NCBI GenBank assembly: GCA_043797125.1
Contig: JAZDPX010000045.1
Span: 72,338 to 136,337 of the forward strand
Reading direction: 5' to 3'
DNA: 64,000 bases
Origin: Candidatus Omnitrophota bacterium
GTDB lineage: Bacteria > Omnitrophota > Gorgyraeia > JABMRG01 > JAFGKX01
Positions 3,001-63,821 of the stretch are shown piece after piece (the stretch's first letter is position 1; each line of letters starts with the position of its first letter). Under the pieces are notes generated by a model. That model was not told the origin of the DNA and ran no database searches. It saw only the letters and a list, made by a program, of their open reading frames with translations. Both the position numbers and the translations under genes were made by a program.

Positions 3001-6000
3001 TTCAGCTGTTTTTGCAACATCCGTCAAAGAACGTTCTGTTGCAATATGCTCCAGTATTTTCTTTTTGTTTTTTGTAACGGGCTTCTTTGCGTGTTGTGCG
3101 GTTGGGGTTTCTTCAAGCGCGCCTTTGGAAAAATTACCCACATAGATATCTGTAAGCTTTTCCTGCGCAATAACCTGCTCTTTTCTTATCTTTTCTCTTA
3201 GCTGCGTGTTTTGCTTTGGCAGCAATGCCTCCTGTATGCTTAATAGGAAATAGTGCGTTTTGTATTCTTGCGGCATATTTATAAGCCTGTTATTAAGCCT
3301 TGAGTAATTATCGCCAGCTATTTCTATTTTGCCTATCCCTTTAATTGTAATTGTAGCGCCTCCGCCTTGTTCTTTTTTCTCTACTTCGAATTCTATCTTG
3401 TAATATTTGCATACATATTCCTTTATTTCGTGCAGGAGAGCCAGCGGATATTCAAGGAGATTTTCATGCAGCACCAAGAGTTTATCTTTTGGTTCGGCGT
3501 GCCCAAAATAATCCAATGTTGGATGCTCCGCAGACGGTTTAAAGCTGCAGAATTCAGGCTTATCCTTTTCCGGGATATTTTTAAATAGCTCAAGAAACTT
3601 GCCCCATATTTCCTTGTCGCGTAGCGGGGTTTCTGCAAGCGCCTGGGCTGATCTCATTAATGTCTCAACGCGATTTTTATCAAGCGCTTTAATCTCAACC
3701 TGAGCTAATTCATAAGGCGCAAACCCATACCTTTCCAGTTCTATATCCTGTATGCTCAGGTATCTTTTGCCATTCCTATATATAATCCCCCTGGCGCCGC
3801 CCTTCTTACCGATTCGGGCGGAGGCGGGATTTCCTATTTTTACCTGCGGCTCAATAACAGATGATGTAATGGTTGCTTTCGCGCTGGCTGCTTTTACCTG
3901 GCCGCCTAGGGAATCCAGATAGCGAGGTACATAGCTTTCCGGTATGGTTACGGTAAAGGTTTCCTTTTCGCCTTCGCCATAGCAATCCAGTATTTTAATA
4001 TTTAACAGGTTGGCTATGCCTTGCGTCAGTTTTGATACTGCTTTCTGCTGAGCCCCTGTTAAATGATTATAATTGGTGTAAAGCTTTTCTTTTACATAAA
4101 CAAATTCTCCGCTTTCAAGATAAACACCGTGTAAAAGCACGAGTCCCAATGTATCCATTGCAGCATTTTTCGTAATTATAATCAACTCTTGGGCGTCGCC
4201 GATAAAGCTCGTCAGGCTGTGCTTGTTCTCACCCGCGGATGTGCTGCGTTGGCAATTGCCTTGCCCGCTTGCCCCATAACGGCCTATTTTTAATGTTTCC
4301 TTTAAATCAAAGCCCACTTCTGCGCTCACCGCTTCTTTCGACTTTTGTCTGCTTGTGGGTAATTTTTGTAAAGTCTTAAGTAACCCTATCATATCTGCTG
4401 CGATAATGGATTGGGGCTTATTCTGGCTTTGCAACATTTGATAAAGCGTATTAAGCCCTGTTATAATATCTGCAAGGCTGTTTTCACATCTCTCGTATAG
4501 TTTCCTGACTTCTTGTGCTTGCTCATCTAACGGGCACTGCTCAATAAGCCCTATTTCATCCATTATGCCCATTGCCTGCTTTGATATGCTGTTGTCTTTT
4601 ATTATATTTAACTTGCCCAGCAGCCCTATGGCGCCGTTGCGTTTGTTCTCGTCTAGGTTTTCCTTATCAAATCTTAACTTCTTAAGCTCATTTATGTCCT
4701 TGGAAAGTATGGCTTCTTTTAGCTGTACATCCGCGGCTCCAGCATAAAGATCTTTTAGTTTGTTTTCTAGTTTCTGTATGTCTTCTTCCGAAGCGACGCT
4801 GCTTTCCCTAAAGCTTGCGCTATATTCTCCTATATGGCGTTTATAGTTTTCAAAGTTAGTTTTAAACCATGCATCAAATATGCTAAGATTATCGTCTGGG
4901 GCCTCTGGGCTAGCTGTTTCTTTAAGTTTAGCCAGTTCACTAAATTTATCCCTTACATGATGCGGGGCCTGTTTGAATGCAAGTCTGTGCGAGGCTTTGT
5001 GCTCTATTATGCCTTGTGTTCCTTTTAAAAGGTATACCCTGGCTAGTTCGGTAAGCCTTGTGTAAGCTGCTTCACTTTCTTTGCTGTATGCTTGCCTAAA
5101 ATTAAACAAATCTACAAGAAAATCTGCGTCTGCAAGGGCTTCTGTGGCGTCGGAATGGAGTTTTCTTTTTGTTTTGCTAATTTCGCCTCCTAGCAGATCC
5201 GACAGGGAATCGCAGATAACCTCTTCAATTGATGTTTTGGAAGACGCTTCATCCATGTTGGTTAGATCCAGCCTAGCTATTTTCTGTGGGTCGTCAAGCA
5301 AATCAAGGCTGTGTTTATATTTGGCAATTAGCTCTAATTGATATATAAAAACTTTTGGCTCGCGGGATAGTTTAGAAAATAGGCCAATATAATTACATTT
5401 GTTTTCTATTTCTTGCAGGAGCGTTAGAATAGCGCTTAGTTTGCGCGATGCAGAAACCGTACTTGCGTCGTAATTATCAAATATTGTAGTAAGGTTGTAC
5501 AGATTCGCATCGCCGGGAAACAGTTGATACCACAACATAATTATTTCTAAAAAGTCGTGAATGAATTGTTTTTGCCGCTGGTAATCTCTCTGTTTGTTGA
5601 CTGAAACTAATAGCTTAAGTGTTTTACTTTCTGTTTTTGTCAACAAAGATATGCTCTCTTTCTTAAAACCTAAGCCATTTAAACAGGCCTCTGCCGCCCT
5701 GTAAGCCAGCTTGATACAGTCTTGTCGCGCAAATTGTTCATTCCAAAACCCTAAAAGCAATGCCTGAGAAAAAAGTTTTTGCGCTTTTGCCTTTTCTTTC
5801 TGGCGGGGCGCATCTAATAACTCTTTTAACTTTTTTGGCTCTGTAAAGCGTTTTATAAGCGCGGGAGTATGATTTGTAAAACTTGATAGAGCGAGAATAA
5901 AGTCTGCGTCAATCTTGGCCTCATCATAAGAATCAATAACATCTTCTATGGCATCCTTTGCCTTCTCAAAAAGCTTTGCATGCATCTGCGCTCCAGCAAG

Positions 6001-25326: not shown

Positions 25327-26477
25327 TTTCTCTTGCGCTGCTTCGATTTCTTCGAAAAGCGCAAGGTGGTCGATGCGCTTGGAGAGCGCAAGGTAGTCGA
25401 TGTAGGCGAATAAATCATTGTGGGCTGTGGGCTGTGGGCTGTGGGCTTGTTGGCTGGTGACTTTGTGACCTGGTGACCTGGTGACTCCGCCAGTCCTGCT
25501 AGATAACTATAAAATTCCTCGTCCGTTATTTTGCCCAGCTTAAATTCCAAGCTTTTCGAGAGAAGCTCCTGTAATTTATCTTTCTCGAGGGTTTCTGAAA
25601 GTTCCTTTATCAACGCCTCCCTTTGTTCCTGGGCTTTGTTAAAATCTATTGCCTTCTCTTTTTCGACAAGCGCGATGAATGCCTGCAAATTTTTATATTT
25701 TGTTAAATCTGTTTTTGCTTTGTTGGAATATTTTTCTAATTGCTGGGCGTATTCTGAAAGCGTGATCGTTTTGTTGCTGTAATCATCGTTTGCCCTGTCA
25801 AGCGCAAGCATATCCTTTGCGTACGCTTCGGCTTTTAGCCTGTTTAAATCCGACCTTAAAAGCGCCGCGAAAGAAATTACATCCTGCTTGTTTAGCTGGT
25901 ATTTTTTATTACAATCAAGATGTTCAAGGTATAAGCCTCTATCCTCAACGCCTGTAGGCACTAAATATTTATCCCTGTTGGTTATCTTGTAAAATTCCGC
26001 CCCTGTAAAAAGCGCTGTTTTTACAAATGCTTGCGCAACCTGCTTTTTTCTTTCTGTATCCGGGAATTTATCGTAAAAGGATGTATCAAGCTCTCCGGAG
26101 GCGCCTTCAAGGCATAAAAGATGAAGGTTGTGCTTTTGCGCCAGGTTATCTATTATGCCTGCTATGTTAAATTGGGCGCAAGCATCCGCATGGCGGTCCT
26201 GGATGTGGACAATTAACTTTTGCTGGCTGCCTTTATATGTTTCTAAGACTCTGCCGTGTTTTTGGGATACTGACAAATCCAGCGGCGTAAGCGCAAGGCC
26301 GGTTTCTGCTTCTTTTGTTTCTTCATTAACATATCTTTGCGCGTGGGAGGTTTTCTTAAACAGGGTCTGGCCGTCAAAGCCGTAAGCAGGCGTGTTTGTT
26401 GTGAGAAAACATATTATTAGTATTATTGAGATAATCCTAATAATAAATTTCTTATGAGGCTTATGTACGTCTATCAT
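25263..26477 (-). CDS. signal-anchored secreted/membrane module (404 aa); probable 5' portion of the giant gene, separated from it by a frameshift inside a heptamer repeat
   Basis: ATG at 26477 with N-terminal hydrophobic helix (MIDVHKPHKKFIIRIISIILIICFLTTNTPAYG). Protein-like sequence continues until the repeat tract at 25420-25489. After the tract, this frame becomes low-complexity junk while the giant frame becomes protein-like. Confidence 0.55.
   Translation of the reverse strand: MIDVHKPHKKFIIRIISIILIICFLTTNTPAYGFDGQTLFKKTSHAQRYVNEETKEAETGLALTPLDLSVSQKHGRVLETYKGSQQKLIVHIQDRHADACAQFNIAGIIDNLAQKHNLHLLCLEGASGELDTSFYDKFPDTERKKQVAQAFVKTALFTGAEFYKITNRDKYLVPTGVEDRGLYLEHLDCNKKYQLNKQDVISFAALLRSDLNRLKAEAYAKDMLALDRANDDYSNKTITLSEYAQQLEKYSNKAKTDLTKYKNLQAFIALVEKEKAIDFNKAQEQREALIKELSETLEKDKLQELLSKSLEFKLGKITDEEFYSYLAGLAESPGHQVTKSPANKPTAHSPQPTMIYSPTSTTLRSPSASTTLRFSKKSKQRKRKCLPPFLKTTPSASLLNSQKQ
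25420..25489. repeat. (GTGGGCT)4 heptanucleotide tandem repeat followed by degenerate 7/8-mer units (TGGTGAC-like); coding phase changes here
   Basis: Four perfect GTGGGCT copies at 25420-25447, then tgttggc, tggtgac, tttgtgac, ctggtgac, ctggtgac. Both reading frames through the tract encode AHSPQPT-like peptide. Confidence 0.8.
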
Positions 26478-42947: not shown

Positions 42948-43024
42948 GGGCGGTTAGCTCAGTTGGTTAGAGTGCTTCCTTGACATGGAAGAGGTCACAG
43001 GTTCGAGCCCTGTACCGCCCACCA
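42948..43024 (+). tRNA. tRNA-Val (anticodon GAC)
   Basis: GGGCGGTTAGCTCAGTTGGTTAGAGTGCTTCCTTGACATGGAAGAGGTCACAGGTTCGAGCCCTGTACCGCCCACCA. Clean cloverleaf with A73 and encoded CCA. Confidence 0.9.
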
Positions 43025-43066
43025 GCTTGCACGAGCGTGGGTGCAGGCAAACTGTCCCGAGGAACG

Positions 43067-43086
43067 CCTGCCTGCCGGCAGGCAGG
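43067..43086. repeat. 20-bp perfect palindrome CCTGCCTGCCGGCAGGCAGG (REP-like family, copy 1), nested in a longer hairpin tgtccc...gggaca
   Basis: Same 20-mer at 46836-46855 and 53928-53947; degenerate copy at 53975-53994. Confidence 0.8.
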
Positions 43087-43099
43087 AAGCGACGAGGGA

Positions 43100-43393
43100 C
43101 ATTCATCAGTGGATATTAAACATTATTTCTACATAGCAAGATGCAACGATGGCTCTTTATATTCCGGCGCAACCAAAAACGTAGAAGCAAGAATTAATAG
43201 GCACAATCAAGGCAAGGGCGGTAAATACACTCGTGGCCGGAAACCCATAACGTTGGTTTACAAGGAAGAATTTAGCAGTTTGTTATTAGCGCGCAGGCGC
43301 GAAAGCGAAGTAAAGAGTTGGGGGCGTAAGAAGAAGGAAGAGCTTATTGAGGCGGCAGGTTTCCCTCGGCCTATGGCCTCGGGACTAATGTAG
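43100..43393 (+). CDS. small GIY-YIG nuclease-family protein (UPF0213/YhbQ-like); GTG start
   Basis: VDIKHYFYIARCNDGSLYSGATKNVEARINRHNQGKGGKYTRGRKPITLVY... matches GIY-YIG (YIG, YTRGRRP-like). The track ORF start at 42980 runs through tRNA-Val and is not credible. Confidence 0.7.
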   Translation, partial: HSSVDIKHYFYIARCNDGSLYSGATKNVEARINRHNQGKGGKYTRGRKPITLVYKEEFSSLLLARRRESEVKSWGRKKKEELIEAAGFPRPMASGLM

Positions 43394-43420
43394 CCTATAT
43401 AGAAGCAAAAGCTCCATTAG

Positions 43421-43441
43421 CGAGCCCTGTACCGCCCACCA
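43421..43441. repeat. 21-bp direct repeat of the tRNA-Val 3' end (CGAGCCCTGTACCGCCCACCA); att-like duplication bounding the GIY-YIG insert
   Basis: Identical to 43004-43024. Confidence 0.85.
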
Positions 43442-43492
43442 TCCGCCTTCGTGTATTGGGCTAGGTTCGTAGTAGATAGCCTTCGGCGGATT
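43442..43492. mobile_element. second copy of the MITE-like ~52-nt element (ATCCGCC...GGCGGAT), followed by ~130 nt with further inverted repeats (ttcgtagtagata / tatctactacgaa)
   Basis: Near-identical to 29374-29425, with one G/C difference. Confidence 0.6.
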
Positions 43493-43625
43493 TTAATCCG
43501 CCGCATGTTATCTGCTATGAACCGCAGAAGCAAAGTAGGCGGATGAGCCCGCCGTACGTTATCTACTACGAAGCTCAAAAGCCAGGAAGGCGGGCCAGAA
43601 AACAAAGCAGCTTTTTGCAGGGCGA

Positions 43626-44381
43626 GTGGTGAAATGGCAGACACGAAGGACTATTATGAAACGCGCTAGCGGCGATGAAACAAAATATAGCTTGCTATTT
43701 AAGAACAAACACTTTTGGTATTTAGTAGGCTTGGTTACCGCAGATGGTAGTTTGAGTAAAGACAAAAGGCATATAGATATTACCTCTAAAGATAAAAAGT
43801 ATTTAGAAGACTTGAAAACGTGTTTTAATTTAGATAATCGTGTTGCTATGAAGAACAAAAATAAGAAAAACGTAGCATACCGCATCCAACTAGGCAGTAA
43901 GCTCCTGTGGAACTTTTTATATTGTATAGGCTTAATGCCAAGAAAGACACACGAACTGATGTCGGTTAATGTCCCGGCAACCAAATTTAGAGATTTTTTG
44001 CGAGGGTTTATTGATGGCGACGGCAATATCCAGAGCTGGATAAATAATAGAAACGGGCACAGGCAATGGTCCTTAAGAATGAAAATTCTATCAGGCGCTT
44101 TTGCCAAATGGCTTTGTAAAGCAACAGAATATTATGTAGGAGCCAAAGGCCGCTTGCATCTTGAGAGCAAAGAAAACAGGCAAGACATATATGTGTTGAA
44201 GTTTGGCAAGCTTTCTGCGAGGCACATACTTAAAAGATGTTATTATAAAGGCGCTTTCGCATATTACAGAAAACGTAGCCTTGCGCTGCAATGTTTATCT
44301 AGCGAAACAGGTTGGTCAACGCATAGCAGCGTTTTAACAAAAGCGCCGGGATGCTGGAATTGGCATACAGTGCAGACTTAA
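43626..44381 (+). CDS. LAGLIDADG-family homing-endonuclease-like protein (two LAGLIDADG motifs)
   Basis: YLVGLVTADGSL and FLRGFIDGDGNI motifs. Alternative start at 43656. The ORF reads into tRNA-Leu and its TAA stop is the tRNA anticodon. Confidence 0.65.
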   Translation: MVKWQTRRTIMKRASGDETKYSLLFKNKHFWYLVGLVTADGSLSKDKRHIDITSKDKKYLEDLKTCFNLDNRVAMKNKNKKNVAYRIQLGSKLLWNFLYCIGLMPRKTHELMSVNVPATKFRDFLRGFIDGDGNIQSWINNRNGHRQWSLRMKILSGAFAKWLCKATEYYVGAKGRLHLESKENRQDIYVLKFGKLSARHILKRCYYKGAFAYYRKRSLALQCLSSETGWSTHSSVLTKAPGCWNWHTVQT

Positions 44382-46835: not shown

Positions 46836-46855
46836 CCTGCCTGCCGGCAGGCAGG
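46836..46855. repeat. REP-like palindrome CCTGCCTGCCGGCAGGCAGG (copy 2) within an AT-rich inverted-repeat spacer between infC and rpmI
   Basis: Exact 20-mer. Surrounding aaattcaaaat-type inverted repeats run from 46860 to 46950. Confidence 0.8.
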
Positions 46856-53927: not shown

Positions 53928-53994
53928 CCTGCCTGCCGGCAGGCAGGCAAAATCCAAATGAAATCCAAATGTCACCTGCCTGGCGGCAGGCAAG
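53928..53994. repeat. REP-like palindrome CCTGCCTGCCGGCAGGCAGG (copy 3, 53928-53947) plus a degenerate copy (53975-53994), followed by tgtcatt-type AT-rich repeats
   Basis: Exact 20-mer, then cctgcctggcggcaggcaag. Lies in the hldD-rarA spacer. Confidence 0.8.
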
Positions 53995-54115
53995 CATGAC
54001 AAACTTCAAAACAACAATTTTGTTATTTGATATTTGTAATTTGTCATTCATTTGTCATTTGTGCTTTGGCATTTGTCATTAACTTATAAAGCAAAATATT
54101 TTTATTACTTTTCAC

Positions 54116-54430: not shown

Positions 54431-55780
54431 GATTTATTCCAAGCAACCACTCAAATTACAAGCCGCCTTCCTCTAGCTGCAAGAATGCGCCCGGCCACGC
54501 TAAAAGAATTTGTAGGCCAGGAGCATATTGCCGCAGAGGGCAAACTTCTGTCCAGGGCAATACAGGCAGATAAAATAACATCACTAATACTCTACGGCCC
54601 GCCCGGCGTAGGCAAAAACTGCCTTGCTATCATCATCAGCAACATCACCAAGGCGCATTTCGATGAGGTAAACGCCGTTACGTCTAATGTCGCCGAACTT
54701 CGCAACATTATTGAAGCGGCTAAAAACCGCCTAAAGACTACAGGCAAAAGGACAATCCTTTTTATCGACGAGATACACCGCTTTAACAAGGCGCAGCAGG
54801 ACGTGCTTATGCCTTATACGGAAAAAGGCGAAGTGATTTTAATAGGCGCGACAACGCATAACCCGTTTTTTTCAATAATAGCGCCGCTTATCTCCCGCTC
54901 CCTGGTCTTTGAATTAAAACCGCTTTCGCAGGACAATATTAAGGCCATTTTACAAAGGGCTGTTGATGACAAAGAAAACGGGCTCGGTAGCCATAAAATA
55001 AAAATAGAAAAAGAGGCGCTTGAGTTTCTGGCGAAAATCTGCGACGGAGATGCCCGGCGGGCGCTAAACGCGCTGGAGCTCGGGGGCCTGACGACAAAAC
55101 CCGCCAAAGACGGGTTTATTAACTACACGCTAAAAATCGCGCAAGAGTGCACGCAGAAAAAGGCGGTTGTATATGATAAGGATGAAGACAGCCATTACGA
55201 TACCATATCCGCTTTTATAAAATCAATGCGCGGCTCCGACCCTGACGCGGCGCTATACTGGCTCGCGAAGATGTTGTTTGCCGGCGAGGATCCGAGATTT
55301 ATCGCAAGAAGAATCGTAATATGCGCGGCCGAAGACGTAGGCAACGCTGACCCGCAGGCGCTGGTTTTGGCAAACGCCGCAATGCAGATATCGGAATTCG
55401 TCGGAATGCCGGAGGCGCGTATTCCGTTAGCGCAGGCAACTGTTTATATCGCCTGCGCGCCCAAATCAAACGCCGCATATATGGGAATAGAAAAAGCCCT
55501 TGCTGATGTTGAAAAAGGAAGGACCTTTGAAGTGCCTACGCATTTAAAAGACGCCAGCTATTACGGGGCAGAAAGATTGGGGCATGGCGAAGGATATAAA
55601 TACGCGCATTCTTACAAAGATCATTATGTTAAGCAGGAATATATTCCTAAAAAACAGATTTATTATGAGCCGACAGATATCGGTTACGAAAAAAAGATAA
55701 GGGAATATCTTGAAGGACTCAAGGCAGTGTCATTCCCGCGGAAGCGGGAATCCATAAACGATAGTTATCCACAACCGTAG
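54431..55780 (+). CDS. rarA: replication-associated recombination protein A (RarA/MgsA AAA+ ATPase)
   Basis: Walker A GPPGVGKN and MgsA C-terminal helical domain. Start MDLFQATT at 54431; the track's 54359 start lies inside the hairpin. Confidence 0.85.
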   Translation, partial: DLFQATTQITSRLPLAARMRPATLKEFVGQEHIAAEGKLLSRAIQADKITSLILYGPPGVGKNCLAIIISNITKAHFDEVNAVTSNVAELRNIIEAAKNRLKTTGKRTILFIDEIHRFNKAQQDVLMPYTEKGEVILIGATTHNPFFSIIAPLISRSLVFELKPLSQDNIKAILQRAVDDKENGLGSHKIKIEKEALEFLAKICDGDARRALNALELGGLTTKPAKDGFINYTLKIAQECTQKKAVVYDKDEDSHYDTISAFIKSMRGSDPDAALYWLAKMLFAGEDPRFIARRIVICAAEDVGNADPQALVLANAAMQISEFVGMPEARIPLAQATVYIACAPKSNAAYMGIEKALADVEKGRTFEVPTHLKDASYYGAERLGHGEGYKYAHSYKDHYVKQEYIPKKQIYYEPTDIGYEKKIREYLEGLKAVSFPRKRESINDSYPQP

Positions 55781-55804
55781 CGCAGGCTTAAGCCTGCGCT
55801 ACGG
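55765..55804 (+). repeat. DnaA-box-plus-hairpin element copy A (TTATCCACAACC GTAGCGCAGGCTT AAGCCTGCGCTAC GG), supplies the rarA stop codon
   Basis: 26-nt perfect palindrome GTAGCGCAGGCTTAAGCCTGCGCTAC preceded by TTATCCACA. Confidence 0.8.
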
Positions 55805-55834: not shown

Positions 55835-56050
55835 ATGAAAACTTTCATAGTCGTATTAATAGCAGCTGTAATAACAGCCGCCCTTTTCTTTAGCGTAAGC
55901 TCGTTAAAGGCAGAGCAAGGCGAACCCACGATAAAAGATCTGGCGAAACAGCTTGAGCAAGCGCTGCAGAATCAAGCAGACATTATTGCGAAGCTTGGCG
56001 AGATAAAAGAAGAGCTTAAGATTATCAAGGTAAGGTCAACCCTTCGCTAG
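55835..56050 (+). CDS. small membrane-anchored coiled-coil protein (71 aa)
   Basis: N-terminal TM helix (MKTFIVVLIAAVITAALFF) then an amphipathic helix. Good RBS (AGGAGG) upstream. Confidence 0.5.
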   Translation: MKTFIVVLIAAVITAALFFSVSSLKAEQGEPTIKDLAKQLEQALQNQADIIAKLGEIKEELKIIKVRSTLR

Positions 56051-56059
56051 AAACTCCAT

Positions 56060-56200
56060 TAAGAGGCCTCGGGACCGGTTTAGGGCGGGTCCTGTCTTGC
56101 CGAGCCGAAGCCCTTACCGCGCGCAAGCAAAGCTGAGCACGGTGAGGTGGCTCGGCAAGACACCCGCCTTTAATTATGGCCACCCCTCGGCCTGAAATTT
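56060..56200 (+). ncRNA. candidate structured RNA (possible 6S/ssrS-like) upstream of the MTHFS gene
   Basis: Long imperfect helix (gggcgggt/acccgcc and gtcttgccgagcc/ggctcggcaagac, 13 bp) enclosing a ~42-nt apical region. ssrS-ygfA(MTHFS) linkage is conserved in other bacteria. Confidence 0.3.
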
Positions 56201-56227
56201 CGTAAAACAAAAAAAATTCAAAGAGAT

Positions 56228-56315
56228 TGCTGAAATATTGTCAATGACGTAAAAATGGAATATTTCAGCAATCTCTCCTTTTACCATTGACAATCTAGTA
56301 TAAGCTATATATTAT
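56228..56315 (+). promoter_or_regulatory. perfect 18-bp inverted repeat (agagattgctgaaatatt / aatatttcagcaatctct) followed by sigma70 promoter TTGACA-17-TATTAT for the MTHFS-rny operon
   Basis: -35 at 56287-56292 and -10 at 56310-56315. The operator-like palindrome sits immediately upstream. Confidence 0.45.
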
Positions 56316-58533: not shown

Positions 58534-58540
58534 TTAATGG

Positions 58541-58606
58541 TCTATAGTCTATAGTCAATAGTCTATGGGAATTGTTTAACCATTGACCATCGACCATTGA
58601 CTATAG
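58541..58606. repeat. ~66-bp imperfect palindrome in the rny-ymdB spacer (tggtctatagtc...gactatagacca, with internal tagtcaatag repeats)
   Basis: Outer arms are perfect 12-bp inverted repeats. Possible terminator/operator. Confidence 0.5.
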
Positions 58607-58625
58607 ACCAACATAGGAGTTTTTC

Positions 58626-59405: not shown

Positions 59406-60636
59406 CGGTATAGGCGCAAAAAAGAAGATATACACGGTAAGCGAGCTTACAAGAGAGATAAGGTTTATCTTAGAGAACAGCTTTCCTGCTGTGTGGGTCG
59501 AAGGAGAGGTTTCGAATTTTACAAGGCACAGCTCAGGCCACTGCTATTTAAGCCTTAAGGATTCTGAAAGCGTAATTTCATGCGTTATATTCAAAAATAT
59601 AGCAGACACTCTCAAGTTTGACATAAAAGACGGCGTTCGCTTAATCTGCTTTGGCAGGATAAGTCTTTATAATAAAAGAGGGCAGTATCAGTTTTATATT
59701 GAAGAAGCAGAACCAAAAGGCGTAGGGGCGTTGCAACTTGCCTTTGAGCAGCTTAAGGAAAAGCTGCAGAAACAAGGACTGTTTGACCAATCTCATAAAA
59801 GGGCCATACCTATTTTGCCAAGCAGGATAGGTGTTGTAACCTCCCCCACAGGCGCCGCAATAAAGGACATACTTAATGTAATAGGCAGGCGTTTCCCCAA
59901 TATGCATATAATTTTATATCCTGCCAAGGTTCAAGGAGACGGCGCAAGCCAAGAAGTCAAAGAAGGCATAGAAGCATTTAACCGCCTGAAAAACGTGGAT
60001 GTAATAATAGTCGGAAGGGGCGGCGGAAGCCTTGAGGATTTGTGGGCCTTTAATGAGGAAGTCTTGGCGCGCGCCATATACAATTCAGGCATACCAATAA
60101 TATCAGCGGTCGGCCACGAGATAGATTATACGATAGCTGACTTCGTAGCTGATTTAAGGGCGCCGACTCCGTCCGCTGCAGCTGAAATAGTCGCAGGCAA
60201 AAAAGAGGATTTCCTGAATAATATCGAGAATTTAAATCAGCGGCTAAAAAGCGCCCTGATGGCGGAATTAGATTCGGCAAAAAACAAATTAGAGGCATTA
60301 AAACAAAGATACGCGTTCAAACAGCCGCTTTTTTTAATTCAGCAGAATTTTCAGAGAACGGATGACCAGACAAAAGCCCTTAACCAGAACATAAACCATT
60401 TTTTGCAGGAAAAGCAGCACCAGCTGGACAATTTATCCAGCACCCTTAAGGCCCTTAATCCGACAGCGATTTTATCAAGAGGCTACAGCATTACGGCAAG
60501 GGCCGCAGACGGCAAGATAATCAAGGACGCCGAAGAATTAAACGAAGGCGACATCATAAAGACGCGATTGGCAAAGGGTGAGGTAGAGAGCAGGGTTGAG
60601 AAAAAGGACTTATCCACAACCGTAGCGGAGCCTTAA
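59392..60636 (+). CDS. xseA: exodeoxyribonuclease VII large subunit
   Basis: OB-fold N-terminus and catalytic core. The last eight codons and the TAA stop are encoded by a hairpin element. Confidence 0.85.
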   Translation: MEKISGIGAKKKIYTVSELTREIRFILENSFPAVWVEGEVSNFTRHSSGHCYLSLKDSESVISCVIFKNIADTLKFDIKDGVRLICFGRISLYNKRGQYQFYIEEAEPKGVGALQLAFEQLKEKLQKQGLFDQSHKRAIPILPSRIGVVTSPTGAAIKDILNVIGRRFPNMHIILYPAKVQGDGASQEVKEGIEAFNRLKNVDVIIVGRGGGSLEDLWAFNEEVLARAIYNSGIPIISAVGHEIDYTIADFVADLRAPTPSAAAEIVAGKKEDFLNNIENLNQRLKSALMAELDSAKNKLEALKQRYAFKQPLFLIQQNFQRTDDQTKALNQNINHFLQEKQHQLDNLSSTLKALNPTAILSRGYSITARAADGKIIKDAEELNEGDIIKTRLAKGEVESRVEKKDLSTTVAEP

Positions 60637-60649
60637 GGCTCCGCTACGG
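60610..60649 (+). repeat. DnaA-box-plus-hairpin element copy B (TTATCCACAACC GTAGCGGAGCCTT AAGGCTCCGCTAC GG)
   Basis: Same architecture as copy A, with compensatory gcaggc/gcctgc to ggagcc/ggctcc changes that keep the stem perfect. Confidence 0.8.
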
Positions 60650-61009: not shown

Positions 61010-61881
61010 AACCCGGCGCCTATTTAAAGAATAAACAAAGGCTGATAGACGACAAGTTAAACGCGCTTATTCCGGATGCAAAAAGTTTTCCGCCGCTGAT
61101 TTATCAGGCAATGCGCTACAGCATGGCAGACGGCAAAAGAATAAGGCCTATTCTTTGCATGGCCTGTGCTAAAATGTGCGCAGCCAGCGAAAAAGATTCT
61201 CTTCTTTGCGCCTGCGCAATTGAAATGATACATACGTATTCTCTGATACACGATGATCTGCCATGCATGGATAACGATGACTACAGAAGGGGCAGGCCTT
61301 CGTGTCATAAAAAATTCGATGAAGCAACGGCTGTTTTGGCCGGGGACGCATTAATGACGCTCGCTTATAATATATTGGCAGGCGCCACAAAAGGCCCCGG
61401 CATAAATAACCGTTTAATAAAAGTGCTGTCAGAGGCAACCGGCTCAAAAGGCATGATAGGCGGCCAGGTTGTGGACATAGGTTGCGCCCACAGCCCACAG
61501 CCCACCCCATACCATTCGCTTCGCTCAGGTACGGGGCAGGCAGCCCACAGACCAATGGATTTACCGACGATCGAGTACATAAACACCCATAAAACCGGCG
61601 CCTTGATAGCTGCCTCATGCAGGTTAGGCGCAATTATAGCGAGAGCCTCCAAGCGAAAAGAACAGGCAATTTTTAAATTCGGCGAATATATTGGATTTGC
61701 ATTTCAGGTTGTGGATGACATGCTGGATAACGAGGGCATGGCTAGGGTTATCGGTAAAAAGCGCTCGCATGTAAGGGCAAAAGATTTAATAGAAAAGGCA
61801 AAGGCCCAGCTTTCTACGTTTGGCAAAGATAAAAAGCCATTGCTGGATTTAGCGGATTTTATTTTAGAAAGAAAACAATAA
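61006..61881 (+). CDS. ispA: (2E,6E)-farnesyl/geranyl diphosphate synthase
   Basis: DDxxD motifs (LIHDDLPCMDNDDYRRG; VVDDMLD). xseB-ispA-dxs synteny. Contains a ~19-aa in-frame insertion carrying heptamer repeats. Confidence 0.85.
   Translation: MKPGAYLKNKQRLIDDKLNALIPDAKSFPPLIYQAMRYSMADGKRIRPILCMACAKMCAASEKDSLLCACAIEMIHTYSLIHDDLPCMDNDDYRRGRPSCHKKFDEATAVLAGDALMTLAYNILAGATKGPGINNRLIKVLSEATGSKGMIGGQVVDIGCAHSPQPTPYHSLRSGTGQAAHRPMDLPTIEYINTHKTGALIAASCRLGAIIARASKRKEQAIFKFGEYIGFAFQVVDDMLDNEGMARVIGKKRSHVRAKDLIEKAKAQLSTFGKDKKPLLDLADFILERKQ
61485..61507. repeat. GCCCACA heptamer tract (GCCCACAGCCCACAGCCCACCCC) inside ispA, part of a ~57-nt in-frame insertion translated as ...CAHSPQPTPYHSLRSGTGQAAHRPM...
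   Basis: Same heptamer, same encoded AHSPQPT peptide, as the giant-gene junction repeat at 25420-25447 (reverse complement). Confidence 0.7.
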
Positions 61882-61883
61882 GC

Positions 61884-63782
61884 ATGTTGCTCGATTCCAT
61901 AAATTCCCCTCAAGATTTACGCAAACTCGCGCAGGAAAAACTGCCGGAACTTGCCCATGAAATAAGAAGCTTTATCATAAAAACTGTTTCTGAAACAGGC
62001 GGGCATCTTGCCCCAAGCCTTGGGGCTGTGGATGTTATTATCAGCCTTCATTATTGCCTGAATACGCCGAAGGACACTATTGTGTGGGATGTAGGCCATC
62101 AGGCATACGCGCACAAGATATTAACCGAAAGAAGAGATAAATTTCATACGTTAAGGCAAAGAGACGGGATAAGCGGTTTTCCTAACGCGTTTGAATCGGA
62201 ATATGACGCGTTTACCGTCGGGCATGGTTCTACCTCTATATCCACCGCGTTAGGCATGGCAGCAGCCCGGCGCATAAAAAAGATAAAAGACAAGACAATC
62301 GCGTTTATAGGAGACGGTTCTTTGGGCGGGGGCATGGCGTTTGAGGCGCTAAATCACGCAGGCCAGCTGCAGGAAGACCTGCTTATTGTTTTAAATGACA
62401 ACGAGTTTTCGATATCGCGCAGCGTCGGAGCTTTCAGCAAATATTTAAACAGGGTCCTTACAAACCCCATATACAACCGCATAAGGACGCAGATGCAGGA
62501 TGTTGTAAAACGCATTCCCAAGGTTGGTTCAGCAACATTTAACGCGGCCAGAAAACTGGAAGAGGCGTTAAAAAATTTACTCGTACCCGGTATAATATTT
62601 GAAGAGATGGGCATAAGGTATTTTGGCCCGGTAGACGGACACAACATAAACGCGACGATAGGCCTGTTAAAAAATGTGATACCCATTAAAGGGCCGCGCA
62701 TAATTCACGTTGTTACAAAAAAAGGCAAAGGTTATGAGCTTGCGGAAAAATCACCCCACAGATTCCATGGCACCACGCCTTTTAATATAGACAGCGGCGA
62801 GAATAAAACTGCAAGCAGTTTTAGTTTTACAGACGCGTTCAGCCAGAAACTTATTGAGCTTGCAAGCTCAGACGATAAAATTATTGCCGTAACAGCAGCC
62901 ATGCCGGAAGGCACGGGCCTTGACGCGTTTCATGAAAAATTCCCAAACAGATTTTTTAATGTCGGCATAGCCGAAGAGCACGCCGTAGGCCTGGCAGCGG
63001 GCCTTGCAAAAAGCGCTCTTGTGCCTGTTGTCGCGATTTATTCCACATTTTTGCAGCGTTCATACGATCAGATAATACACGATGTGGCGCTGCAGAATTT
63101 GCATGTTGTGTTTTGCCTTGACAGGGCAGGCCTTGTGGGCGAGGACGGGCCTACGCATCACGGAAATTTCGATATAGCGTTTATGCGCCACGTCCCGAAT
63201 ATTGTATGTATGGCGCCAAAGGACCAGCAAGAACTCATGGATATGCTTGAATTCGCCATATACAAGGTTAAAGGCCCTGTGGCGATACGCTACCCCAGAG
63301 GTAGCGTGACCCAAAGACCAGGCAGCTCATCTAGTAGCGCAGGCTTAAGCCTGCGCTACTCTGGCGGAGCAGAGATTCAACTCGGCAAGGCAGAAGTTTT
63401 AAGAGAAGGCAAGCACGTAGCCATATTAACAATCGGCTCAATGGCACAAGCCTCTTTAGAAGCCGCTGATATTTTATCGGAATATAAGATTTCAGCCGAG
63501 GTTGTTAATATGAGATTTATAAAGCCTATCGATGAAGACCTCATGAGAAAGCTTTGCCAGCGCATAAGGCATATTGTTACTGTTGAGGACGGCTGCCTTA
63601 AATGCGGGTTTGGTTCGGCTATTCTTGAGACAATAAATAAATCAGGAATAAAAAATTTAAGCGTAGAAACCTTAGGCCTGCCGGATGAATTCATTACGCA
63701 TGGGAAAAAAGACCAGCTTCTTTCGGATTATGGCTTAGATGCAAAAGGCATCGCTTCGACGGTGAAGGCCTTATTAAAGTAA
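61884..63782 (+). CDS. dxs: 1-deoxy-D-xylulose-5-phosphate synthase
   Basis: TPP-binding GDG...N motif (IGDGSLGGGMAFEALN) and transketolase-like domains. Carries an in-frame palindrome insertion. Confidence 0.9.
   Translation: MLLDSINSPQDLRKLAQEKLPELAHEIRSFIIKTVSETGGHLAPSLGAVDVIISLHYCLNTPKDTIVWDVGHQAYAHKILTERRDKFHTLRQRDGISGFPNAFESEYDAFTVGHGSTSISTALGMAAARRIKKIKDKTIAFIGDGSLGGGMAFEALNHAGQLQEDLLIVLNDNEFSISRSVGAFSKYLNRVLTNPIYNRIRTQMQDVVKRIPKVGSATFNAARKLEEALKNLLVPGIIFEEMGIRYFGPVDGHNINATIGLLKNVIPIKGPRIIHVVTKKGKGYELAEKSPHRFHGTTPFNIDSGENKTASSFSFTDAFSQKLIELASSDDKIIAVTAAMPEGTGLDAFHEKFPNRFFNVGIAEEHAVGLAAGLAKSALVPVVAIYSTFLQRSYDQIIHDVALQNLHVVFCLDRAGLVGEDGPTHHGNFDIAFMRHVPNIVCMAPKDQQELMDMLEFAIYKVKGPVAIRYPRGSVTQRPGSSSSSAGLSLRYSGGAEIQLGKAEVLREGKHVAILTIGSMAQASLEAADILSEYKISAEVVNMRFIKPIDEDLMRKLCQRIRHIVTVEDGCLKCGFGSAILETINKSGIKNLSVETLGLPDEFITHGKKDQLLSDYGLDAKGIASTVKALLK
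63334..63359. repeat. 26-nt perfect palindrome GTAGCGCAGGCTTAAGCCTGCGCTAC inserted in-frame within dxs (translated SSAGLSLRYS)
   Basis: Identical to the hairpin of element copy A. Lies in a ~12-aa segment absent from E. coli Dxs, between RYPRG and the LGKAE region. Confidence 0.7.
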
Positions 63783-63783
63783 G

Positions 63784-63821
63784 TTATCCACAACCGTAGC
63801 GGAGCCTTAAGGCTCCGCTAC
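63784..63821 (+). repeat. DnaA-box-plus-hairpin element copy C, just 3' of the dxs stop
   Basis: TTATCCACAACCGTAGCGGAGCCTTAAGGCTCCGCTAC. Confidence 0.8.

Follow-up and report, generated by a model that had tools for sequence, protein, structure and literature searches.

The 64,000-nt stretch of contig JAZDPX010000045.1 analysed here (positions 72,338 to 136,337 of the forward strand, assembly GCA_043797125.1; hereafter the window) comes from a Candidatus Omnitrophota bacterium and contains an operon in which mgsA is followed by a small open reading frame (ORF), the 5-formyltetrahydrofolate (5-FTHF) cyclo-ligase gene, rny, ymdB, xseA, xseB, ispA, dxs and a ferredoxin gene. The dxs gene (61884-63782, plus strand) encodes a full-length, three-domain 1-deoxy-D-xylulose-5-phosphate synthase. 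Within its coding sequence, at 63334-63359, lies the 26-nt palindrome GTAGCGCAGGCTTAAGCCTGCGCTAC, which has outer arms GTAGCG and CGCTAC, inner arms CAGGC and GCCTG and a central TTAA, is assigned to neither strand and falls in codons 484-492. Here, we describe this palindrome, the repetitive extragenic palindrome (REP) family whose type-A core hairpin it represents, and the REP-associated tyrosine transposases (RAYTs) that the family flanks in related genomes.

The dxs palindrome and its reading frame

The initial annotation had reported a perfect palindrome within dxs that was identical to an intergenic copy and was translated as part of the protein, and our analysis bears out each of these statements. 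The dxs copy and the intergenic copy at 55777-55802 are identical at 26 of 26 positions, the translation of the ORF at 61884-63782 includes ...RYPRGSVTQRPGSSSSSAGLSLRYSGGAEIQLGK..., with the palindrome codons read as SSAGLSLRY, and the ORF is intact around the insert. Once the A and T next to the 26-nt core are counted, the palindrome extends to 28 nt (63333-63360). In 100 dinucleotide-preserving shuffles of the window GTAGCGCAGGCTTAAGCCTGCGCTAC was matched 0 times, and as single-stranded DNA the dxs hairpin folds at -15.1 kcal/mol (z = -7). Read from the sequence, the remaining two frames of the palindrome are blocked, one by the TAG in GTAGCG and the other by the TAA in the loop, and, because the sequence is palindromic, the same frame stops occur on the opposite strand; the frame used by dxs is therefore the sole stop-free frame through the element.

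The palindrome lies in the linker between the pyrimidine-binding and C-terminal domains of Dxs, which spans codons 476-500 (63309-63383, plus strand). This placement in the linker of domains II and III follows from the Pfam domain limits on the window Dxs (Transket_pyr, 313-475; Transketolase_C, 501-623) together with an AlphaFold2 model in which residues 472-503 form a coil, with a predicted local distance difference test score below 50 for residues 479-495.

To the earlier claim that a segment between the conserved RYPRG and LGK motifs is absent from other Dxs proteins, the alignment of the window protein with 31 Omnitrophota Dxs sequences gives definite lengths. The window Dxs is 10 residues longer here than its closest relatives (P0002-P0004 and P0006-P0008, 70-74% identity), and its excess over the E. 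coli enzyme (PDB 2o1s) appears as gaps of 10 and 2 residues. Linker length among 120 homologues ranges from 12 to 37 residues with a mode of 15-16, compared to 26 residues in the window Dxs. The palindrome is absent from all Dxs orthologues examined, that is, the 31 aligned sequences and the 120 homologues used for linker length. One homologue, P0119, has a linker (SSSSRAGL...) that resembles the window peptide; its DNA contains no significant palindrome, and we do not count it as a copy.

Full units at gene ends in the same operon

The pattern GTAGCG-N5-TTAA-N5-CGCTAC occurs four times in the window (starting at 55777, 60622, 63334 and 63796) against an expectation of 0.01. A relaxed scan, which required of each 26-mer a central TTAA and pairing at 8 or more of 11 positions, returned the same four copies only, all of them perfect (shuffle mean 0.48), and a search for degenerate copies across the window, including its giant gene, found none. 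The copies fall into two types, A (inner stem CAGGC; 55777 and 63334) and B (inner stem GAGCC/GGCTC; 60622 and 63796), which differ at two stem pairs, each difference being compensated on the opposite arm. As single-stranded DNA the four fold at -13.5 to -20.8 kcal/mol (z = -6 to -9) with stems of 11-14 bp. All four lie within one 8-kb operon as singletons, 462 to 4845 nt apart, and none forms the inverted pairs known as REPINs or bacterial interspersed mosaic elements (BIMEs).

The three intergenic copies belong to a larger unit, which consists of (A)GTTATCCACA, a spacer of 2-3 nt (ACC in each of these three) and the 26-nt GTAG-N7-TTAA-N7-CTAC palindrome. All three full units, each on the plus strand, are located at the 3′ ends of co-directional genes, and two of the three supply the stop codon. 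The mgsA gene terminates at the TAG within GTAGCG of the type-A unit at 55764-55802 (GTTATCCACA, ACC and the 26-nt palindrome). The type-B unit at 60609-60647 contributes the last eight residues of XseA (LSTTVAEP) and, through the TAA of its loop, the xseA stop codon. The second type-B unit (63783-63821) begins one base past the dxs stop codon, upstream of the ferredoxin gene. The suggestion that this genome tolerates short repeats inside its genes is corroborated by the xseA tail and stop, by the mgsA stop together with a further 20-nt hairpin in that gene, and by the GCCCACA heptamers of ispA. No GTAG-type element was found at the matching gene junctions or in dxs of the syntenic loci L001, L102 and L103.

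The copies resemble intrinsic terminators in being G+C-rich hairpins just past a stop codon, but they differ in that no T-tract follows and one copy is intragenic. None was recovered in a terminator scan (the sequences past the hairpins being GGGTACCT, GGTTACAA, TCTGGCGG and AGAAACTA), and a terminator function was rejected. Likewise, no Rfam 15 family matched any copy between 55000 and 64000 at E-values up to 10.

Distribution of the family and its association with RAYT genes

Scanning one genome per species with a 16-base pattern retrieved at least 99 stretches. Among the matches listed, 85 of 106 are perfect palindromes though the inner 5 nt were left unconstrained, with about 30 distinct compensated inner stems; these 85 include 43 from Omnitrophota, 13 from Chloroflexota, 10 from Syntrophomonas-type Bacillota and 5 from Planctomycetota. 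In about a quarter of the same matches the nonamer TTATCCACA stands, with at most one mismatch, 2-3 nt from one end of the palindrome and occasionally from both ends, and it faces the flanking genes in both orientations (6 sense, 8 antisense). A fixed transcript orientation was rejected on these counts, and the lack of a preferred orientation speaks against the full unit acting at the transcript level. Carriage by phages was discarded as well, with just 2 matches in 2.9 million viral contigs. In one unclassified metagenome-assembled genome (MAG; ERR2113683 bin), the half-sites GTAGCGCAGA and TCTGCGCTAC are repeated around a central palindrome (L093, 600-4600; L011, 900-1100), and these arrays yield long nested palindromes, some of them within open frames.

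When 2397 ORFs from the 99 loci were clustered all against all, no specific neighbour gene family emerged, only housekeeping families, with the exception of one cluster of three members. With the E. coli RAYT as the probe, phmmer identified this cluster as Y1 transposases, and Pfam agreed (Y1_Tnp; 2e-12 for the L096 protein). The L096 protein, from Omnitrophica GWA2_41_15, scores 114.6 bits against the NCBIfam model for REP-associated tyrosine transposases (NF047646, cut-off 80) and matches the E. coli TnpA_REP structure 4er8; it has about 162 residues and no extra domain. Its gene is bracketed by the repeat: the upstream flank reads GTAGCGGACGTTTAAACGTCCGCTAC-CC-TGTGGATAA-CT-ATG, and the stop codon TAG is followed by TTATCCACA-GCC-GTAGGTACCGTTTAAACCTCTCCTAC-CC-TGTGGATAA.

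The same arrangement recurs well beyond this genome. A metagenome scan with the L096 protein yielded 35 loci, and flanks were analysed for the 24 that were near full length (67-100% identity; L104-L127). The 26-nt GTAG...CTAC palindrome and TGTGGATAA precede the RAYT start codon in 21 of the 24, TTATCCACA and the 26-nt palindrome follow the stop codon, again in 21 of 24, the spacers measure 2-3 nt, and the palindromes are always 26 nt long. Every RAYT-flank palindrome (42/42) and every window copy (4/4) starts with GTAG or a one-base variant of it. The full units of the window share this exact architecture, which identifies their family as a GTAG-type REP that has its cognate RAYT in related genomes, a combination termed a 'REPtron'.

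Two further Y1 loci were recorded. In L051 the Y1 gene is bracketed by different repeats, which are not the GTAG-type REP of the window, and the locus was set aside. In L010 (380-1460), a Syntrophomonadaceae RAYT (NF047646, 117 bits) is located amid several GTAG-type hairpins, such as CCGCGGAGATTCAAATCTCCGCTAC and GTAGAGGCGAATTGATTCGCCG, and a copy of GTAGCGGAGAATTAATTCTCCGCTAC lies about 390 nt upstream of it.

Relation to known palindromic elements

The initial annotation had compared the dxs insert to Rickettsia palindromic elements (RPEs), and part of this comparison stands: as in RPEs, a palindromic repeat is located in frame within an ORF, is translated as an extra surface segment and leaves the host gene intact. 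RPEs are, however, about 100-150 bp long, encode a conserved peptide of 30-50 residues, make up the sequence families RPE-1 to RPE-10, occur in Rickettsia only and are not known to be moved by a transposase, according to the description by Ogata et al. (2000) as relayed in PMC10969869 and PMC3733652. At 26-30 nt and about ten residues, and as a member of a RAYT-linked GTAG REP family, the window element is set apart from them by size and by family description, so far as that relayed account goes. Judged by its sequence, the dxs element is best classified as the core hairpin of a GTAG-type REP and, by family, not as an RPE.

For GTAG REPs, sub-families with compensatory stem changes, sites just past genes and the donation of TAG stop codons have been described (Di Nocera 2013, PMC3733652). 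A minority of them are intragenic and in frame, including copies in tRNA synthetase and DNA repair genes (PMC3733652), and some REP families consist mostly of single units, so that inverted pairs are not obligatory (published surveys; PMC3733652). The family reported here shares with the GTAG REP/REPIN and RAYT 'REPtrons' (Nunvar 2010, PMC2817692; PMC3733652; Corneloup 2021, PMC8266576) the short, G+C-rich stem-loop led by GTAG, the compensatory sub-families, the gene 3′ ends, the TAG stops, the in-frame intragenic copies and a cognate RAYT bracketed by the repeat. It differs in its host, Omnitrophota, and in that the window copies are singletons instead of inverted pairs or BIMEs. In-frame GTAG REPs being already documented (PMC3733652), an in-frame REP is in itself no surprise to specialists. 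A limited literature search found no paper that describes REPs or RAYTs in Omnitrophota. Most of what is known about REPs and RAYTs comes from Proteobacteria, and our observations add Omnitrophota and neighbouring uncultured lineages to their range.

How the palindrome may have reached dxs

We consider it probable that a core copy of a RAYT-linked GTAG REP was inserted into the linker region of dxs and has remained there as a tolerated passenger. The RAYT, an HUH/Y1 endonuclease acting on single-stranded DNA, presumably spreads the GTAG-type REP, and one copy of the REP core, with a net gain of about 30 nt, would have entered the part of dxs that encodes the flexible linker joining domains II and III, adding some ten residues (…SSAGLSLRYS…) to a disordered surface segment. 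Such an insert can be survived in an essential gene because 30 nt keep the frame, because the sole open frame of the palindrome is the one in use, and because the linker is disordered. The hairpin may then have persisted without a function of its own.

The likely footprint of this event, CT-A-[26 nt]-T-CT (63331-63362, plus strand), contains the 28-nt palindrome and one CT, which together make 30 nt or 10 codons. RAYTs cut single-stranded REPs at CT dinucleotides beside the hairpin, and perfect palindromes are what some RAYT groups recognise (PMC8266576); the CT dinucleotides flanking the dxs copy correspond to these published cleavage sites. The agreement between a CT-bounded 30-nt footprint and the 10-codon excess is suggestive only, and both the boundaries of the footprint and the CT junction are putative, since no empty-site allele is present among the proteins searched.

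Several observations weigh against this reading. No close relative with an empty site was found among the proteins searched, the best match being 74% identical. The linker is hypervariable, and some distant Omnitrophota Dxs proteins have linkers of 23-37 residues with no palindrome. Palindrome-free Dxs proteins of the same length as that of the window, which the initial annotation had regarded as evidence against an insertion, thus do occur in some of the more distant clades, whereas the nearest relatives have short linkers. Given this hypervariability and the existence of long palindrome-free linkers, linker length alone is no proof of insertion, and it is mainly the exact identity to a dispersed repeat that favours insertion over evolution in place. 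No RAYT (Y1) ORF is present within the 64-kb window, and no system is known in which a RAYT has been shown to drive a REP into a new site, the work in PMC8266576 comprising in vitro cleavage and strand transfer only. The GTAG of classical REPs is an unpaired, one-sided tail, whereas here it is paired with CTAC and hence present on both strands, the asymmetry being carried by the separate conserved TTATCCACA box 2-3 nt away. Finally, all full units carry this box, and the dxs copy does not.

The lack of the box, which reduces the dxs copy to the palindrome only, is also what would be expected had template switching or gene conversion, and not a RAYT, brought in the core from the type-A copy that lies 7.5 kb upstream. 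The dxs copy is indeed identical to this nearest type-A copy, and all four copies are clustered in a single 8-kb operon. In addition, a native hairpin, ACGCTACC-CCAGA-GGTAGCGT (63287-63307, plus strand), covers the conserved RYPRG(S) codons and contains the REP-end hexamers CGCTAC...GTAGCG in everted order, 26-45 nt upstream of the insert, where they may have assisted such an event; the chance of finding both hexamers within 60 nt is about 1e-4, calculated post hoc. The RYPRG codons differ in other dxs loci. The native hexamers do not, however, adjoin the insert, no REP half-sites were found near the other intragenic copies when these were searched for them, and there is no sign of an intermediate or of a partial conversion tract, while the CT-flanked 30-nt footprint suits the cleavage preference of RAYTs (PMC8266576). 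On balance, we find copying from the upstream repeat unlikely, and movement by a RAYT in this genome the more plausible course.

Instead of being a passenger, the hairpin could have been retained for a role in cis, regulating the first enzyme of the methylerythritol phosphate (MEP) pathway through mRNA structure, ribosome pausing or mRNA stability and processing. The region 63270-63380 folds into two adjoining stable hairpins at -51 kcal/mol (z = -4.4), the insert is located exactly at a domain boundary, and the dxs copy is still a perfect palindrome. Against this, the hairpin is absent from every orthologue examined and is identical to copies at unrelated sites, and the orientation of full units among the matches listed is mixed, as given above. 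Moreover, unrelated hairpin families occur in the same linker (P0005, L001) or in a nearby turn (P0064, L103) of Dxs in other genomes, a pattern more in keeping with a tolerant site than with a specific regulator. Retention for such a role is very unlikely in our view, and a neutral insert is the more probable reading.

An assembly artefact, in the form of a chimera caused by repeats or of an insertion introduced in error, might be suspected in a contig that comes from a MAG and whose Dxs forms a single-member protein cluster known from a single contig, with no independent assembly found. We regard it as extremely improbable, as the dxs sequence continues in the same frame on either side of the insert and retains all its domains, analogous in-frame hairpins occur in independent assemblies (L001 and L002, from JGI and ENA), and a 26-nt repeat is shorter than the k-mers that assemblers usually employ, so that no misjoin is expected.

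If the palindrome was inserted in this way, dxs illustrates clearly how, in nature, a mobile hairpin is accommodated by an essential enzyme: in one frame, with a length that is a multiple of three, and in an inter-domain linker. There is also a consequence for annotation, in that such hairpins account for unusual C-terminal extensions, displaced stop codons and differences in length among the conserved proteins of these MAGs.

A DnaA-box-like nonamer beside the palindrome

The nonamer TTATCCACA is an exact match to the consensus DnaA box. It is present in the window at 55765-55773, 60610-60618 and 63784-63792, lies 2-3 nt from the palindrome in every full REP unit, and is better conserved than the inner stem. 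In 21 of the 24 RAYT loci it is positioned between the palindrome and the start codon and, once more, directly past the stop codon; the L096 boxes are at 3660-3680 and 4165-4185. A location near oriC or dnaA was considered and rejected, as the ORFs of about 440-480 residues that might have suggested it (one of them, in L086, adjoining a boxed copy) encode radical-SAM enzymes and not DnaA.

Among related Y1 proteins, the TIRYT group (subclass 2.1 TnpA_Y1) has a C-terminal helix-turn-helix domain similar to Bac_DnaA_C, and the repeats flanking its genes are unlike DnaA boxes (Quentin 2018, PMC6006769). TIRYT and the Omnitrophota RAYT are thus both RAYT-related Y1/HUH proteins with some link to DnaA-type DNA recognition, but the former has the domain without the boxes, whereas the latter has exact nonamers in its flanks without an extra domain. 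A limited literature search found no description of a link between RAYTs and DnaA boxes, nor of this family itself.

The putative DnaA box is a concrete, testable lead on how such elements choose a strand or gain access to single-stranded DNA. If the box binds DnaA, there would be a link between the REP/RAYT pair and the replication initiator, for example through access to single-stranded DNA or through DnaA titration. The Dxs linker, for its part, carries unrelated hairpin families acquired independently in different Omnitrophota, and in this genome the everted REP-end pair CGCTAC...GTAGCG precedes it. If it were local DNA structure that attracts the machinery, REP cores would repeatedly supply essential enzymes with sequence for inter-domain linkers. 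On the strength of the motif and of the insert positions, we think it distinctly doubtful that both parts of this picture hold, namely that TTATCCACA acts as a working DnaA box and that the linker between domains II and III of Dxs is an actual hot spot for insertion.

Other hairpins and repeats in coding sequences

Palindromes of the same type occupy a stop-free frame of long ORFs at other loci among the matches listed, and Pfam supports several of these ORFs as real genes. In an IleRS-like class I synthetase from Anaerolineae (L034), the insert follows the catalytic domain (160-429) and precedes the anticodon-binding domain (479-628), once more in a linker that joins two domains of an essential enzyme, and in-frame copies are also found in giant TPR proteins (L004 and L009) and in a giant ORF (L072). 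The long ORF over the copy in L038 has no Pfam match, looks spurious and was discarded.

Unrelated hairpins occur in frame as well. In the syntenic locus L001, Dxs (P0005) carries the unrelated palindrome TGCCTGCCGGCAGGCA in frame within the same linker. This palindrome (L001, 11455-11475) belongs to the CCTGCCTGCCGGCAGGCAGG family, of which a degenerate member forms the C-terminal tail of P0005; in the window, the family is represented at 43067-43086, 46836-46855 and 53928-53947, with no shared flanks, and by a degenerate copy at about 53975-53995. The Dxs of another syntenic locus (P0064; L103, 4549-4584) has a 30-nt in-frame insert, GACTTA-TCCCGCCCCGGCATGCAAGGGCGG-GACTTA, with an 8-bp stem and a 6-bp direct repeat, which starts eight residues past the linker end; the direct repeat looks like a target-site duplication. 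The 20-nt hairpin of mgsA (ATTCCCGC-GGAA-GCGGGAAT, 55732-55751) is in frame near the 3′ end of the gene (SFPRKRES) and has a single copy in the window, and its site corresponds to an 8-residue gap in the L001 orthologue. Small G+C-rich coding hairpins appear, from these cases, to be recurrent in the lineage and to be concentrated where proteins tolerate extra residues.

Some further repeats were observed in the window. Tandem heptamers are found at the 5′ end of the giant gene on the minus strand (TGTGGGC, 5.3 copies, 25419-25456) and, as the complement GCCCACA (2.9 copies, 61486-61505), in ispA, and these correspond to the heptamer insertions named in the initial annotation. The giant ORF itself (1-25506, minus strand) exceeds 8,500 codons and runs past the window start; unlike L004, L009 and L072, it contains no GTAG palindrome. 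An ORF for a GIY-YIG protein (42971-43393), with a CCTGCC palindrome in its 5′ part, lies beside an ORF for a LAGLIDADG protein (43539-44381), with a 29-nt inverted repeat (43464-43523) between them, and the region 42971-44381 may be a homing-endonuclease islet. Two more hairpin-forming stretches are located at 56060-56300, after the small ORF (55836-56050), and at 58538-58610, in the spacer between rny and ymdB, where the heptamers GTCTATA and ACCATTG occur; both have sub-threshold matches to Rfam microRNA models on both strands and represent generic hairpins.

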